Both the position numbers and the translations under genes were made by a program. This document shows positions 38,582 to 60,422 of a stretch of 64,000 nucleotides of DNA, piece by piece. The stretch covers positions 7,304 to 71,303 of the forward strand of contig CAYWKF010000014.1 in assembly GCA_964459155.1 (NCBI GenBank). The letters run 5' to 3'. A model generated the notes under the pieces. That model saw only the letters and a list, made by a program, of their open reading frames with translations, was not told where the DNA came from and did no database searches. Source of the DNA: an uncultured Desulfobacterales bacterium. GTDB taxonomy: Bacteria > Desulfobacterota > Dissulfuribacteria > Dissulfuribacterales > JALVPX01. How positions within the stretch are numbered: position 1 is the first letter of the stretch; each line of letters begins with the position of its first letter.

Positions 38582-38717
38582 TTCTATAATCCATTTTTCT
38601 TTCTTAGCAGTAGTTGATTTTCTTTCACAATTTCTTGACATTTTTTTCATATCAAATTAGATGCCTTACCCAGTTAAAACAAGCCGTTTCTAAGCTGTGT
38701 AAAGGAGACCTTTGATT

Positions 38718-41145
<2,428 letters not shown>

Positions 41146-44009: not shown

Positions 44010-44408
44010 TCAATGTCTCGTGTTTTGCAGTATGACCACGGCTGTTGCGTATTCCCCTTCATGGGAAAGGCTCACCATCCAGCTTTGAGCTCCAATTTGC
44101 ATAGCAAGTCTCCGGGCATTGCCATTCAAGACCAGCACTGGCCTGCCTGAATTCTCCTGCAGCACTTCCATTTGGCGCCAGGCAACTCCTTTTCTCATGC
44201 CAGTTCCCAGAGCCTTTGAACAAGCCTCTTTGGCAGCAAATCTTATTGCAAAGGCCTCAGAGGGCCTTTTTCTCTTGAGGCATATTTCAATTTCCTGCTC
44301 TGTGTAAACCCTGTTCAGGAAACGGTGTCCAAACCTGTTGATTACTCCCTCTATCCGTGGGATGTGTACCAAGTCTATGCCCAAGCCAAGGATCATTTGC
44401 GTCCTCAA
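44010..44408 (-). CDS. acpS: holo-[acyl-carrier-protein] synthase
   Basis: The 132-aa ORF reads [12 protein letters not shown]......[10 protein letters not shown] and [14 protein letters not shown]. It overlaps the upstream pdxJ portion by 4 nt. Confidence 0.9.
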
Positions 44409-45562
44409 ACAATCCGGCCTTTTTTCACCAACGACAGCATCTCTTTTACTGCCCGTTCCATACCCACCAACACTGCCCTGGAAACTACCGAATGGCCAAT
44501 GCTGAATTCCACTATTTCCGCCACAGAGGCCAATCTTGCACTATTTTGGTAGTTCAGGCCATGACCAGCATGAACTCGCAGGCCAAGATCAGCAGCAAGG
44601 CTTGCCATCTCAGCAATTTGATCGAACTCCCGGTCCTGTTCTTCAGCTGATATTGCTTCAGCATAGCGCCCAGTGTGGATTTCAATGCACTCTGCTCCGG
44701 TTCTCTTCGCAGCCTCAATTTGTCCTGGTTCTGGATCAACAAAGAGACTTACCGGGATGGATGCCTCGTGAAGGCGTGCAACAGCTTTGGTGATCTCTTT
44801 TTCTAAGGAAGCAACATCAAGCCCTCCCTCAGTGGTTAGCTCCTCCCGTTTTTCAGGCACTAAGGTGACTATGTCAGGCTGCACCTTTGAAGCGATTTTG
44901 ATCATTTCATCTGTAGCCGCCATTTCTAAGGTGAGCCTGGTTTGGATTGTTTGGCGTAGCAATTCAACGTCCCGATCTTGAATGTGGCGCCTGTCTTCTC
45001 TCAGGTGCACTACTATTCCATCCGCCCCGGCCAGCTCTACCAGCACAGCAGCTGCAACAGGATCTGGCTCTACACCGCCTCTGGCCTGTCTCACAGTGGC
45101 CACATGGTCAACATTGATACACAAGTCAGCCATAATCTTCTCCCCCGTAAGTGCTTTGATGAGTTCTTTTTCTTTTTTTTCAAAAACAATTTGTTCACCA
45201 TCAGACCCTTCATGATCATAGCCCAGCAAATGCACCATGCCATGTATCATTAAGGCCGTCAGCCTGTTTTGCAACGTAGTTTGAGCCAGTTTGGCTTCTC
45301 GTTCAGCAGTGTCCAGCGATATTACGATGTCTCCGAGGAGTCTTGATGCTGTGTGTTCGGGCTGGCTGAATGAAATGACATTGGTAGGTCCTTGGCGCCC
45401 AAGCCACTGCTGATTTATTTGAGCGATATCCTGGTCCGTCGTAAGATAAAGGCTCAACTCCTTGTCTTTGTGGCCGGCCAATTTCAAGATTAACTGCGCA
45501 GCCCTATCTACAAAGAGCAATGACTTGTAGCGCGGATGATTCCATTTTATCTCTGCCCCCAT
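44405..45562 (-). CDS. fusion protein: endoribonuclease YbeY (aa 1-143) joined in frame to pyridoxine 5'-phosphate synthase PdxJ (aa 144-385)
   Basis: This is a single uninterrupted 385-codon ORF. The N-terminal part has the YbeY zinc motif [12 protein letters not shown]. From [20 protein letters not shown] onward it is full-length PdxJ ([20 protein letters not shown]). An internal ATG at 45133 is preceded by the SD-like GGGGGAG. Confidence 0.85.
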
Positions 45563-56865: not shown

Positions 56866-56952
56866 GCCGAGGTGGTGGAATTGGTAGACACGCCATCTTG
56901 AGGGGGTGGTGGGCGCACGCCCGTGGGGGTTCGAATCCCCCCCTCGGCACCA
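56866..56952 (+). tRNA. tRNA-Leu (anticodon GAG)
   Basis: The acceptor is GCCGAGG/CCTCGGC, the anticodon stem CCATC/GGTGG has loop TTGAGGG, a long variable arm is present, the T-arm is GGGGG-TTCGAAT-CCCCC, and CCA is encoded. Confidence 0.9.
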
Positions 56953-57074
56953 ATCTTTGAATCACCTTCTAGTCTTTTATAGAATCTTGACCTAGGGGTA
57001 AAAACGTGTTATCCGTCCCGAGCTTCCGGAATGGTTGTAATTGGTTCTGGTTGTGTTAACTTTAGATGTGGTGT

Positions 57075-57151
57075 CGGGACGTGGCGCAGTCTGGAAGCGC
57101 ACCTGAATGGGGTTCAGGGGGTCGGAGGTTCAAATCCTCTCGTCCCGACCA
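57075..57151 (+). tRNA. tRNA-Pro (anticodon GGG)
   Basis: The acceptor is CGGGACG/CGTCCCG, the anticodon stem CCTGA/TCAGG has loop ATGGGGT, the T-arm is GGAGG-TTCAAAT-CCTCT, and CCA is encoded. Confidence 0.92.
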
Positions 57152-57233
57152 ATTTTCTGATCTATATTGATTAGTGGGCAGAAGGAATAAGATTTCCTGC
57201 CTGCCGGGATAAGCTTTGAAAGGAGGGGTTGCC

Positions 57234-57677
57234 ATGGCATTGAGCACTTTTAGCCCGGTCAGGGCGGGAATAGAGGCCATGCGAATTCAGCGCTGTGCCG
57301 CCTCTCATGCAGCAGAAAATGGAATGAGTACCCATTTGTTGGTGGAAATGTGGCGATCCCCATTTTCCATCCTGGCAGATGCCCAAACCATCAAAAAGGC
57401 CTTAAGTCGCACAAATGGCAACGGCAGCAGCAAGGAATGCTCAGTGAGGGTTCATCAATTTGATCCTTACGGAGTATCCGGTACCTATAATGGTCCGAAT
57501 GCCCATATCTTAATACACACATGGCCTGAAAATGGCTATGCAGCAATAGATATCTTTTCCCGCGGAAAGGATGGCGCATACAAAGTGCTGGAAAGGATGA
57601 AGGAAGAACTTCAGCCTGAATATCTGCATGTGCTTGAAGTCCAGCGGGGACAACTTATCAACATGGAGGACACTTGA
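57234..57677 (+). CDS. S-adenosylmethionine decarboxylase (class 1a SpeD/SpeH)-like protein lacking the pyruvoyl-precursor Ser and the catalytic Cys (probable pseudoenzyme)
   Basis: The family is recognised from HQFDPYGVSG....HILIHTWPENGYAAIDIF. The conserved self-cleavage dipeptide Glu-Ser is Asn-Ala here (57498-57503), and the FTCG Cys is Arg (57561-63). The start is set at ATG 57234, with RBS AGGAGG at 57221-26. Confidence 0.7.
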   Translation: MALSTFSPVRAGIEAMRIQRCAASHAAENGMSTHLLVEMWRSPFSILADAQTIKKALSRTNGNGSSKECSVRVHQFDPYGVSGTYNGPNAHILIHTWPENGYAAIDIFSRGKDGAYKVLERMKEELQPEYLHVLEVQRGQLINMEDT

Positions 57678-58549
57678 CTGGTTACTGGTGGTCCGAGCGG
57701 ATCGGACCAGGTTTTGCCCACAGCTATCAGGTGGAGCTCCTCTATGAGGAGCGCACGCCATATCAGCATCTATTCGTGTTCAAGACGCCTCTTTGGGGAA
57801 GGGCATTGGTCCTCGACGGTGTCGTACAATTAACTTTAGCAGACGAATATATTTATCATGAGATGATGGTTCATGTGCCCTTTTTAGGGCGCAAGAGGCC
57901 AGTGAGATCTGCCCTGATAATTGGAGGTGCTGATGGCGGTACACTGAGAGAGGTTTTGTCTCATGAATCGGTTGAACGGGTAGTGATGGTAGAACTTGAC
58001 AGACAGGTCCTCGTTGCCTGTCAAAAATATATGCCCGAAGTATGCCAATGCTGGGATGATCCTAGGCTGGAATTGATCATAGGAGACGGTGCAAAATACG
58101 TGGAAGAAGCTGCATCCCGGGGGGAGCAGTTTGATTGTATCCTCCTTGATTCCACCGATCCAGTGGGACCGGCCATATGCCTTTTTGAGCGTCCGTTTCA
58201 CGAGAACATTGCCAAATGTCTAGCAGACGATGGAGTGGTTGTGAGGCAATCTGGCCTTCCTAGGACCATGCCCAAAGTCATGCCCTTTGTAATGAAGCGA
58301 TTTGAAGACGTGATGCCTGGTGTTCAGGTATACCGCGCCCCTGTGGCAGCATATGGCGATGAGATGGCCTTCGTAATTGCCACTAAAGATGGCGCATCTT
58401 GTGCGTTGCCCAATTCCAACCTAGTGGGCCGTTATTACAATCCCGAATGCCACAAGGCAGCTTTTTCCCTGCCTACCTGGTGGAAAAGGCTTATTGATGA
58501 ATATGAGGATGATGGTACGGTTCCAATAGAAACAGTTGATTGTTTCTAG
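57674..58549 (+). CDS. speE: spermidine synthase-like polyamine aminopropyltransferase
   Basis: The 291-aa ORF has the motifs WWSE, YQHLFVFKTPLWGRALVLDGVVQLTLADEYIYHEMMVH, IIGGADGGTLREV and ILLDSTDPVGPA. The TTG start at 57674 overlaps the upstream stop (TTGA). Confidence 0.8.
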   Translation: MTGYWWSERIGPGFAHSYQVELLYEERTPYQHLFVFKTPLWGRALVLDGVVQLTLADEYIYHEMMVHVPFLGRKRPVRSALIIGGADGGTLREVLSHESVERVVMVELDRQVLVACQKYMPEVCQCWDDPRLELIIGDGAKYVEEAASRGEQFDCILLDSTDPVGPAICLFERPFHENIAKCLADDGVVVRQSGLPRTMPKVMPFVMKRFEDVMPGVQVYRAPVAAYGDEMAFVIATKDGASCALPNSNLVGRYYNPECHKAAFSLPTWWKRLIDEYEDDGTVPIETVDCF

Positions 58550-58618
58550 TACCCTCATCAAAATTGCCCATCTTTTTAAAAACAAAATGATTGCTTACTT
58601 GCCTACATAGAGAGTTAG

Positions 58619-59395
58619 ATGGATGTTTTCGTTACCCTCTTGACCGATTTCGGTAACAAAGATCCCTACGCAGGCATTGTCAAAGGTGTGCTTTTTTCTA
58701 TAAAGTCAGACCTCAAAGTTATTGATTTGACACATGAAATCGGGCCTCAGAATATCCACCAAGGAGCCTTTGTACTAGGAACATCGTACAAATTTTTCCC
58801 TGCGAGAACCATCTTCATTGCAGTAGTCGATCCGGGTGTGGGGACCGAGCGCCGTGGACTCGTCCTTGAAGCTGGGGATTACACCTTCATTGCACCAGAC
58901 AATGGCCTGCTCACCTATCCAATAATATATGAAAGAGAGTGGCGATGTTATGAAATAAAAAACAGTAGCTACTTACTCCACCCAATCAGCAGGACCTTTC
59001 ATGCTAGGGACGTGTTCGCGCCGGTTGCAGCCCATATTGCAGCAGGTGAACCCATTGAAAACTTTGGACCACCAGTGCATGATCCCGTTCAATTTAAAAT
59101 AGCAGAACCTCTATCGTTGGAAAAAGAAATAAAAGGACAGGTGGTCTATGTAGATGGATTTGGCAATGTGATCACCAATATTCCCGGAGAGTTGGTGATT
59201 CACAAGAAAGTTAGATCCGTGAAAGTGAAGGACCATAATTTGCCCTTCGTAACAACTTATGGTGATGTCAAACAAGGGAAATGCGCTGCTTTGGTTGGCA
59301 GTACTGGCTTTATCGAAATAGCCGTGAATGGGGGCGATGCGTCAGCATTTTTGAACGCGAGTATTGGAGATGAGGTCTTGGTGGAAACTACCTGA
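58619..59395 (+). CDS. SAM hydroxide adenosyltransferase / SAM hydrolase family protein (DUF62, fluorinase-chlorinase fold)
   Basis: The 258-aa ORF has the motifs [48 protein letters not shown] and [10 protein letters not shown]. Confidence 0.85.
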
Positions 59396-59867: not shown

Positions 59868-60422
59868 CTACCAGTCATAGGGTTTGGCCAGGATGTCGCG
59901 AATCTTTATCTCAAAAAGGTTGTTTGAAGAGGCTGGTTTGATCAATGCGACCGTATCAGCGCCTCTAGCCGTGCCAGCCATGGCAAGTACATCCTTTGTA
60001 CCGATCAAGCCTGCGTCTGAAGCCATCATAACTATTTCCACGCACACTTTTATTCCCTGGCACAGGATTCTTAGGGTGTTGGCGATAAGATCTTGCTGAG
60101 AGTAGCCCAATGTGGTTCTTATGGCCGTTCCAATATTTCTGAAAGGCATTGTGCCTGTGTATACAACGGCCCCCAAAGACTCGATTTCAGCCTTGGTGTC
60201 TGATTTCATCTCCAAGGTTCCCGGCTCTCTAAATCCAGTGTTATGGGTCACCACAATTACTTTTGTTTTAAAGCCTTTTAGTGCTGAAGCAGCTTGCAGG
60301 CCTGTTGTTCCATATGTAGAAGCCACTACCACTTCATTGACGCCATATTTTTTAACCCCTTCTTTCAGTATTTCCAGCGCCTTTTCACTGTTTTTATAGC
60401 CTGGTTTTGGAAAGGTGTACAT
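59868..60422 (-). CDS. stand-alone pyruvate kinase alpha/beta (C-terminal)-domain-like protein
   Basis: The 184-aa ORF has the pattern VVVASTYGTTG...VIVVTHNTGF..PG......L..LGA.V.TGT and CQGIKVCVEIVMMASDAGLI....VLAMAGTARGADTVALIKPA. This is typical of the small PK_C-like proteins of anaerobes and archaea. Confidence 0.65.
   Translation of the reverse strand: MYTFPKPGYKNSEKALEILKEGVKKYGVNEVVVASTYGTTGLQAASALKGFKTKVIVVTHNTGFREPGTLEMKSDTKAEIESLGAVVYTGTMPFRNIGTAIRTTLGYSQQDLIANTLRILCQGIKVCVEIVMMASDAGLIGTKDVLAMAGTARGADTVALIKPASSNNLFEIKIRDILAKPYDW

Follow-up and report, generated by a model that had tools for sequence, protein, structure and literature searches.

A 64,000-nucleotide (nt) stretch of DNA from an uncultured Desulfobacterales bacterium (contig CAYWKF010000014.1 of assembly GCA_964459155.1, positions 7,304–71,303; hereinafter the window) contains a tRNA-Pro(GGG) gene followed on the same strand by an open reading frame (ORF) for a homologue of the S-adenosylmethionine (SAM) decarboxylase AdoMetDC (SpeD), a gene for the polyamine aminopropyltransferase SpeE and a gene of the DUF62 family of SAM hydroxide adenosyltransferases; smpB and dnaE lie beyond these on the opposite strand (Table 1). 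The product of the first of the three genes, which we term pSpeD, had been placed in the AdoMetDC family in a preliminary description made from the DNA letters alone, and both profile and structure searches bear this out. It matches the Pfam profile AdoMet_dc (PF02675) over 107 of 107 positions (E = 8.2e-26) and passes the cut-off of the NCBIfam equivalog TIGR03330 (80.5 bits; cut-off 75.65). An AlphaFold2 model with a mean predicted local distance difference test (pLDDT) score of 82.7, the core being mostly >90, has the AdoMetDC fold, and its best Foldseek matches are the Thermotoga maritima and A. aeolicus enzymes (1vr7_B: E 2.8e-12; target-normalised template modelling score, TM, 0.82). The class 1a label used in that description has to be replaced, however, as small enzymes of the T. 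maritima type are assigned to class 1b in the nomenclature of the field.

Residues such as F49, S63 and C83 are numbered here as in T. maritima AdoMetDC, and N89, A90 and R110 as in pSpeD itself. An alignment by phmmer with the T. maritima enzyme (1vr7, 1tlu, 1tmi) runs without gaps through the block formed by GVSG, 10 residues and IHTWPE, the identical spacing on which the preliminary description had built its own alignment. It sets N89-A90 of pSpeD against E62-S63 and R110 against C83, so that the replacement of Glu-Ser by Asn-Ala and of the catalytic Cys by Arg stands; both codons were also read directly. There is no Ser or Cys between G83 and H91 of pSpeD, which makes a shifted nucleophile unlikely, and none of phmmer, MAFFT, hmmalign and Foldseek places a Ser at the cleavage position, whence the pyruvoyl cofactor is predicted not to form in this protein. 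Both processing and catalysis require S63, H68 and C83 (Li et al., 2023, JBC). Among the best matches in the PDB, and the best-scoring solved relative of pSpeD (36% identity in Foldseek), is 1tmi, the engineered 'S63A non-processing mutant' of the T. maritima enzyme, which like pSpeD has Ala at the cleavage position; self-processing as an escape from the loss of Ser accordingly looks unlikely on this alignment. As a single mutant, 1tmi keeps C83 and E62, whereas pSpeD has diverged in nature as a whole family and bears an N-terminal extension. On these alignments, pSpeD is a class 1b AdoMetDC paralogue without the pyruvoyl-forming Ser and the catalytic Cys.

The N-terminal extension of about 30 amino acids (aa), likewise pointed out earlier, is a real part of the protein: the ribosome-binding site AAAGGAGGG followed by an ATG (57234 in the window) is kept in the relatives L001, L004 and L008, and an extension is common to all members of the family (protein lengths 141–161 aa, and 137–172 aa in a further count of family members). 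Its ratio of nonsynonymous to synonymous substitution rates (dN/dS) of 0.10–0.16 indicates that it is coding; its pLDDT in the AlphaFold2 model is 50–56. Across the first 90 nt of the gene the synonymous divergence is 0.29–0.36, as against 0.9–1.4 in the core (comparisons with L001 and L002; small counts), and this low divergence could reflect a nucleotide-level constraint near the start.

Table 1. Features of the pSpeD locus, with positions in the window.
Feature	Position	Strand	Basis or remark
tRNA-Leu(GAG)	56866-56952	+	
Promoter-like site	56957-56985		Only upstream of tRNA-Pro(GGG)
tRNA-Pro(GGG), conserved upstream neighbour of the operon	57075-57151	+	ARAGORN; Rfam, 59 bits
Leader hairpin, ~9 pairs	57176-57202	+	Minimum free energy fold; probably not regulatory
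Shine-Dalgarno AGGAGGGG for the long form of pSpeD	57221-57229	+	Read in the sequence
pSpeD, degenerate class 1b AdoMetDC homologue, 147 aa	57234-57677	+	Pfam, NCBIfam, PDB alignment, Foldseek
N-terminal extension of pSpeD, 30 aa, sequence-variable	57234-57323	+	Low-confidence predicted helix
Degenerate processing site Asn89-Ala90 (AAT GCC), replacing Glu62-Ser63	57498-57503	+	
Retained H95-T-W-P-E99 motif (T. maritima H68-E72)	57516-57530	+	Part of the predicted trans-acting substrate-binding half-site; kept in 8/8 degraded fusion domains
Arg110 (CGC), replacing catalytic Cys83	57561-57563	+	
Translational-coupling junction	57665-57677	+	GGAGGA Shine-Dalgarno (57665-57670) inside the last pSpeD codons, then TTG/TGA overlap (TTGA, 57674-57677)
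speE, canonical polyamine aminopropyltransferase, 291 aa, TTG start	57674-58549	+	PF01564, PF17284, NF002010
DUF62/SAM hydroxide adenosyltransferase, (R)-SAM hydrolase homologue, 258 aa	58619-59395	+	Optional third gene of the operon

To establish how far the degenerate form extends, one genome per GTDB species was scanned, which gave 80 loci, 73 in Thermodesulfobacteriota and seven in an outgroup. All 73 Thermodesulfobacteriota loci carry the degenerate form (Thermodesulfatator, Thermosulfurimonas, Thermodesulfobacterium, Caldimicrobium, Dissulfuribacterales, Desulfobulbaceae and many metagenome-assembled genomes labelled 'Deltaproteobacteria'), whereas the seven outgroup loci keep the canonical ES/TS...C; judged by the names of the organisms, the clade is largely thermophilic or from hydrothermal samples. 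Metagenomes provided 39 further loci with the same degenerate signature, nearly all from one set of related samples (Ga02568xx/Ga0256914); the window itself can be assigned to this set through contig L091, the gene of which is 100% identical to the pSpeD of the window. As the substitutions are thus family-wide (73 + 39 loci), they are not the sequencing errors that the preliminary description had allowed for. A HMMER search of 1.84 billion cluster representatives returned six proteins at E≤1e-30, five of which belong to the pSpeD family, making this a narrow family. By these comparisons, pSpeD is a strictly conserved, single and vertically inherited family of at least 73 species, mostly thermophilic sulfur bacteria.

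Selection on pSpeD is comparable with that on its neighbour: dN/dS is 0.020–0.041 for pSpeD and 0.021–0.040 for speE (window, L001, L002), and 0.13 for DUF62 (window, L001). A degenerate homologue kept by selection is what the preliminary description had proposed, and with these values its pseudoenzyme reading can be maintained: pSpeD is very probably dead as a catalyst yet functional. The loss of two key catalytic residues is also what would be expected first in a dying gene, but a decaying speD relic, or an artefact of sequencing or assembly, is refuted by the conservation data: the ORF is intact in all 73 species and on the 39 metagenome contigs, it has 19 invariant residues in common with active enzymes, and its dN/dS is 0.02–0.04. 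We give this reading practically no credence.

The pattern of residues retained and lost was counted over 74 family sequences. Position 63 is occupied by A (47), I (7), L (6), V (5), S (4), T (3) or M (2), and position 83 by R, E, K, S, G, D and others, including reversals of charge (R/K vs E/D), with Cys in none. F49, H68, W70 and E72, by contrast, are invariant (74/74), as is the HTWPE motif (74/74), and 19 invariants in total are common with active enzymes (H7, E11, F49, P51, G53, V54, S55, I67-E72, Y75, A77, D79, E109, R112 and G113). E62, S63, C83, G84, F81, H47 and T40 are lost relative to both the Thermotoga-type and the 'W-type' reference sets, and the gains that are clearly specific to pSpeD are few (F44, A48 and A115, relative to W-type bona fide SpeDs); a longer first list of specific invariants had been inflated by a Thermotoga-biased comparison set and was discarded. 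pSpeD has an invariant face with F49, P51, S55, H68, W70, P71 and E72, and a variable one around positions 62, 63, 83 and 84.

The organization of the operon was tabulated over the 73 species loci. pSpeD-speE-DUF62 occurs at 25, pSpeD-speE with DUF62 not next at 37 (counted where the flank is present), pSpeD-speE with the contig ending at five, pSpeD-DUF62 with speE deleted at five, and pSpeD alone at one (L052). The linkage noted in the preliminary description hence holds for speE, which is directly 3′ of pSpeD in 67 of the 73 loci, and not in the same measure for DUF62, which adjoins in 30 (25 + 5). The stop-start overlap TTGA, first seen in the window, is present at every one of the 67 speE loci of the clade, and the junction ACTTGACT is identical in 73/73 loci and is preceded by a purine-rich Shine-Dalgarno box that varies little. 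This embedded Shine-Dalgarno and the overlapping TTG start account for the conserved E-[DE]-T at the C-terminus of pSpeD, which we therefore rejected as a feature of the protein. The speE start is TTG inside ACTTGA in 67 of 67 cases and never ATG or GTG, though the Thr codon would be preserved in ACATGA and ACGTGA as well; a weak, coupling-dependent TTG start of speE thus seems, on this pattern, to be under selection. TTGACTGGT, the first bases of speE, is still present at three of the five pSpeD-DUF62 loci (L017, L020 and L031), from which it follows that the ancestral operon had three genes and lost speE there. In the operons without speE, the dN/dS of pSpeD is 0.017–0.030.

The SpeE of the window is of the canonical kind (NF002010, 272 bits; cut-off 260), and the motifs GGADGG, DSTDP and YHEMM singled out earlier as its decarboxylated SAM (dcSAM) and polyamine sites align with GGGDGG, DSSDP and YQEMI of PDB 6o64. 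On the 5′ side, 49 of the 73 loci have a tRNA-Pro(GGG) gene ahead of the pSpeD match, at a distance of no more than ~700 nt. The hairpin reported in the leader between the two exists, but as ~9 pairs rather than as the 10-bp structure described at 57177–57205, and it is not conserved in other relatives, nor even in L001 (the protein of which is 96% identical). The folding z-score of the whole leader is −2.1, and the hairpin has no match in Rfam; with neither a match nor conservation, a regulatory hairpin or riboswitch was rejected. In Dissulfurirhabdus thermomarina (L083; 72% GC, compared with 29–54% in the other clade members sampled), genes for PNP_UDP_1 (methylthioadenosine [MTA]-phosphorylase-like) and Amidohydro_1 proteins are located ~3–5 kb upstream of pSpeD-speE-DUF62 (L083:4671-6838), which suggests a wider SAM/MTA salvage cluster in that genome.

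The third gene was correctly recognized as DUF62 from its letters, both SAM_HAT domains (SAM_HAT_N and SAM_HAT_C; PF01887, PF20257) being present, with the correction that it follows speE after 69 rather than 70 nt. DUF62 enzymes are (R)-SAM-specific hydrolases that counter the heat-driven epimerisation of SAM (bioRxiv 10.1101/2025.08.29.672840). This specificity, the largely thermophilic or hydrothermal character of the clade and the position of DUF62 in the operon at 30 of 73 loci, including those where it is the direct neighbour of pSpeD after deletion of speE, would agree with a role in SAM quality control, in which pSpeD binds SAM derivatives such as heat-epimerised (R)-SAM or (R)-dcSAM and works with DUF62 to protect polyamine synthesis in thermophiles. 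We nevertheless hold this to be very improbable: of the loci with an available flank, at least 37 have no DUF62 next to the operon, among them all those named Thermodesulfobacterium or Caldimicrobium, DUF62 evolves much faster than pSpeD (the dN/dS of 0.13 given above), and the window's copy is below the equivalog cut-offs (NF058624, 216.7 bits vs 350; NF053629, 191.4 vs 470). We also know of no precedent for such a role. For the 'SAM-handling trio' of the preliminary description the adjacency in 30/73 loci is likewise a weak basis.

A comparison with the nearest canonical proteins was more informative as to what pSpeD might do. In the 147 nearest representatives, S63 and C83 are both present in 142 of 156 domains, and eight of those without the full pair are the C-terminal domains of two-domain SpeD-SpeD proteins. 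The two halves of these proteins have degenerated reciprocally: the catalytic N-domains keep E62-S63 as a pair in 8/8 and C83 in 8/8 but F49 in 1/8, P51 in 1/8, W70 in 2/8, E72 in 2/8 and H68 in 7/8, whereas the degraded C-domains keep S63 in 3/8 and C83 in 1/8 but F49, P51, H68, W70 and E72 in 8/8 each. The signature of pSpeD, with S63 and C83 lost and F49, P51, S55, H68, W70 and E72 kept, is exactly that of the degraded C-domains. Each active site of class 1b AdoMetDC is reportedly built from both chains of the dimer, in work from 2010 attributed to Bale and colleagues; taken with the reciprocal pattern, this would make F49, P51, W70 and E72 the half-site that acts in trans, and S63 and C83 the half that acts in cis.

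The degraded domains of such fusions (e.g., in Victivallis vadensis and Desulfobacter latus) resemble pSpeD in having a class 1b fold from which S63 and/or C83 are lost and in which F49, P51, S55, H68, W70 and E72 are strictly kept, and they come in part from the same phylum. They differ from it in that pSpeD is a stand-alone ORF of 147 aa with tRNA-Pro upstream and no active domain attached, and in that the degraded domains described in print belong by origin to the ornithine-decarboxylase (SpeDC) branch, whereas pSpeD keeps the Pro of HTWPE that marks bona fide AdoMetDC. The V. vadensis fusion with its degraded second domain is an active AdoMetDC, and fusions of this kind have been proposed as models for the origin of the eukaryotic AdoMetDC (Li et al., 2023, JBC); the comparison with pSpeD extends to the C-terminal half of the eukaryotic class 2 enzyme. 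A two-domain protein of 271 aa (P0170) that ranked just below the family in the searches was dismissed as a specific relative of pSpeD, since its rank is the sum of two domains and per-domain scoring shows that its C-domain fits the canonical hidden Markov model (HMM) better.

The reading that we favour, with a probability of about 0.4, is that pSpeD is a prozyme-like non-catalytic protomer whose partner would be a SpeD with a pyruvoyl group, the product of a gene outside this operon. The two chains would form a heterodimer in which pSpeD donates the adenine/ribose-binding half-site in trans, giving an enzyme with one active site. Such an enzyme would correspond, in a split bacterial form, to the eukaryotic class 2 enzyme and to the fusions of SpeD to a degraded SpeD, and would be functionally like the prozyme of trypanosomatids. 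Co-translation of pSpeD with SpeE through the TTGA overlap and the weak TTG would tie the amount of the heterodimer to that of the enzyme that consumes dcSAM. At this tentative level, the heterodimer is favoured by the catalytic loss in a conserved family, by the signature shared with the fusions, by the variable cis face set against an invariant trans face, by the constraint on pSpeD without speE, by the activity of the V. vadensis fusion and by the clade's production of polyamines; Foldseek also matches pSpeD to the AdoMetDC/prozyme heterodimer of T. brucei.

Aminopropylated polyamines are made in the clade, as shown by Thermodesulfobacterium thermophilum, which accumulates spermine/thermospermine (Spm/Tspm) and has two active aminopropyltransferases; there must accordingly be an active AdoMetDC somewhere in the clade. 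Several observations weigh against the heterodimer all the same. No second PF02675 homologue was found in the 64-kb window or within ~10 kb of pSpeD (88 sources, 1.25 Mb), and no partner speD adjoins pSpeD at the 39 metagenome loci. The subunits of bacterial heteromers are usually co-operonic, and the sole gene coupled to pSpeD is speE rather than a speD. H68 and S55 do not discriminate between the models, since the catalytic and the degraded domains of the fusions both retain them. The degraded fusion domain scores 72 bits with the pSpeD HMM and 92 with the canonical one, so that its resemblance to pSpeD is convergent. F49, W70 and E72, moreover, bind ligand, and a homodimeric ligand-binding protein would keep them too.

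Searches with canonical SpeDs did not lead back to the pSpeD genomes. With a profile of eight canonical SpeDs, the best 120 of 7378 matches are all Thermotoga-like and the pSpeD genomes are not among them; with P0172 as the query (the canonical protein that is best against the pSpeD profile, ~39% identical to pSpeD), cyanobacterial-type relatives were recovered and the pSpeD genomes were not reached. On the metagenome contigs L165 (3275-4937) and L167 (9611-11273), a canonical W-type SpeD is followed ~800 nt downstream by a second, strongly diverged SpeD homologue, which keeps S63 and C83 and has lost F49, W70, P71 and E72; judged by these residues, the second copy may be a neofunctionalised decarboxylase of the ornithine or arginine type.

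The close linkage to speE is the starting point of a rival explanation that is tentative too and only slightly less probable, in which a pSpeD homodimer binds SAM, dcSAM or MTA in its cofactor-less pockets and associates with SpeE; in essence this is the reading of the preliminary description. Its role might then be that of a scaffold or dimerisation module, of handing over dcSAM, of taking up inhibitory MTA or of allosteric regulation, each of them a possibility that we treat with the same reserve. The TTGA overlap with the embedded Shine-Dalgarno in 67/67 speE loci is typical of subunits made in a fixed ratio, and human spermine synthase is matched by Foldseek through its N-domain (3c6k; E 8e-6, 24% identity to pSpeD). 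SpeDs of the active type are fused to SpeE in L078, P0179, P0188 and Pelagibacter, and an independent stand-alone degenerate SpeD, P0198, overlaps the start of speE by 4 nt. The absence of a second speD nearby and the invariance of the ligand-binding F49, W70 and E72 would be equally in keeping with a SpeE partner.

On the other side of the balance, the constraint on pSpeD is no weaker in operons without speE or at the locus where pSpeD has no operon partner (L052), and the aminopropyltransferase APT01 of T. thermophilum (273 aa, the length of the pSpeD-linked SpeE of T. indicus) makes spermidine alone in E. coli; APT01 is the probable orthologue of the pSpeD-linked SpeE, an assignment that we infer. 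The close coupling of speD and speE may have been inherited from an ancestor and need not be peculiar to pSpeD, the pocket-lining positions 62, 63, 83 and 84 vary freely, which is awkward for a defined SAM/dcSAM site, and there is no pSpeD-SpeE fusion among ~110 loci, metagenome loci included. The preliminary description had named the aminopropyltransferase as a possible partner of pSpeD; the universal 4-nt overlap speaks for this, yet with an overlap that may be ancestral and a pSpeD that is kept without speE, the partnership is not established.

Two of the proteins just cited merit a few details. P0198 (L088:1093-2291, JGI metagenome 3300020214) is a protein of 119 aa without an N-terminal extension, encoded on a ~70% GC freshwater contig; it has H-A-H at the cleavage site (Ala63) and Ala in place of Cys83, and its overlap with the ATG start of speE reads ATGA. 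The SpeD-SpeE fusions L078:9983-11300 (Neobacillus vireti), P0179 and P0188 are 405–439 aa long with Ser and Cys intact, and demonstrate that an active AdoMetDC and an aminopropyltransferase can be joined in one bacterial chain.

A further possibility is that pSpeD is still an enzyme and the sole AdoMetDC homologue of these bacteria, producing dcSAM without a Ser-derived pyruvoyl group or catalysing another reaction on an adenosyl substrate. It sits in the speD slot of a speD-speE operon, there is no other speD in the sequence examined (window, neighbourhoods, metagenome loci), the clade makes aminopropylated polyamines, and H7, E11, S55, H68, E72, D79, E109 and R112 are invariant under an enzyme-like constraint. 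We consider this unlikely, because Ala, Ile, Leu or Val at position 63 gives no electron-sink cofactor, S63A is the textbook non-processing mutant, and variability within the protein is highest just where the catalytic centre would be; the absence of another speD, furthermore, covers ~20-kb neighbourhoods only. We regard it as just as doubtful that, with pSpeD as the sole homologue, dcSAM comes from an unrecognised non-homologous decarboxylase or from a chemistry of pSpeD that does not start from an internal Ser.

Among known systems, the closest published ones are the degraded domains of the fusions, the trypanosomatid prozyme and the N-domain of spermine synthase. In trypanosomatids, the prozyme is an AdoMetDC paralogue without catalytic activity of its own, which forms a heterodimer with AdoMetDC and thereby activates it (PMC5201418). 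Like pSpeD it is a dead and selected paralogue, with the same mode of action as that proposed here. Unlike pSpeD, it is a two-domain class 2 protein, encoded beside its active paralogue, and relieves autoinhibition; pSpeD has a single class 1b domain, lacks a neighbouring paralogue and keeps most of the substrate-binding residues. The AdoMetDC-like N-domain of spermine synthase is non-catalytic and is required for dimerisation and activity (PMC4730321). Having an AdoMetDC-like fold without the catalytic residues and a link to an aminopropyltransferase, this domain of the animal enzyme (3c6k) recalls pSpeD, with the difference that it is covalently fused whereas pSpeD is a separate, translationally coupled ORF. 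An hhalign comparison of pSpeD with an approximate human spermine synthase query recovered only an HTW..GY stretch of 11–37 residues at a probability of 4–29% and was not used. No description of a stand-alone degenerate bacterial SpeD was found in the literature on AdoMetDC or on this clade.

Public records name pSpeD 'adenosylmethionine decarboxylase (proenzyme)' (e.g., in T. indicus, T. atlanticus and D. thermomarina). As it also passes the equivalog cut-off, metabolic reconstructions across the clade credit these bacteria with an activity that pSpeD almost certainly lacks, and the family raises the question of where a mostly thermophilic clade obtains its dcSAM. Should the partner of pSpeD prove to be an active SpeD, pSpeD would represent, as a separate protein, a stage between the homodimer of bacteria and the fused eukaryotic enzyme with one active site and, to our knowledge, the first bacterial analogue of the trypanosomatid prozyme. 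With SpeE as the partner, it would correspond to the dead AdoMetDC-like domain of animal spermine synthase, but in unfused form; and if it were the sole homologue, these bacteria would obtain the aminopropyl donor by a new route. With P0198 as a second case, the retention of dead speD genes before speE may, as far as sequences can tell, be a recurrent phenomenon.

Other genes of the window include those for SAM synthetase (metK, 38712-39872, +) and SAH hydrolase (S-adenosylhomocysteine hydrolase; ahcY, 39787-41145, +), 17 kb upstream of the operon; as listed, the two ORFs overlap by 86 nt, and the real start of ahcY is probably further downstream. Between smpB and dnaE, an ORF of 184 aa (59868-60422, −) has no match in Pfam or NCBIfam. 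YbeY (residues 21–136) and PdxJ (residues 147–378) are combined in a single ORF of 385 aa (44405-45562, −), an apparent gene fusion. A protein of 1421 aa (48797-53062, +) has Pfam matches to PPDK_N and the PEP-utilizers mobile domain in its C-terminal third only, and is adjoined by a divergent GAPDH-like gene for 421 aa (53116-54381, +), a canonical gap gene being also present at 47775-48782.

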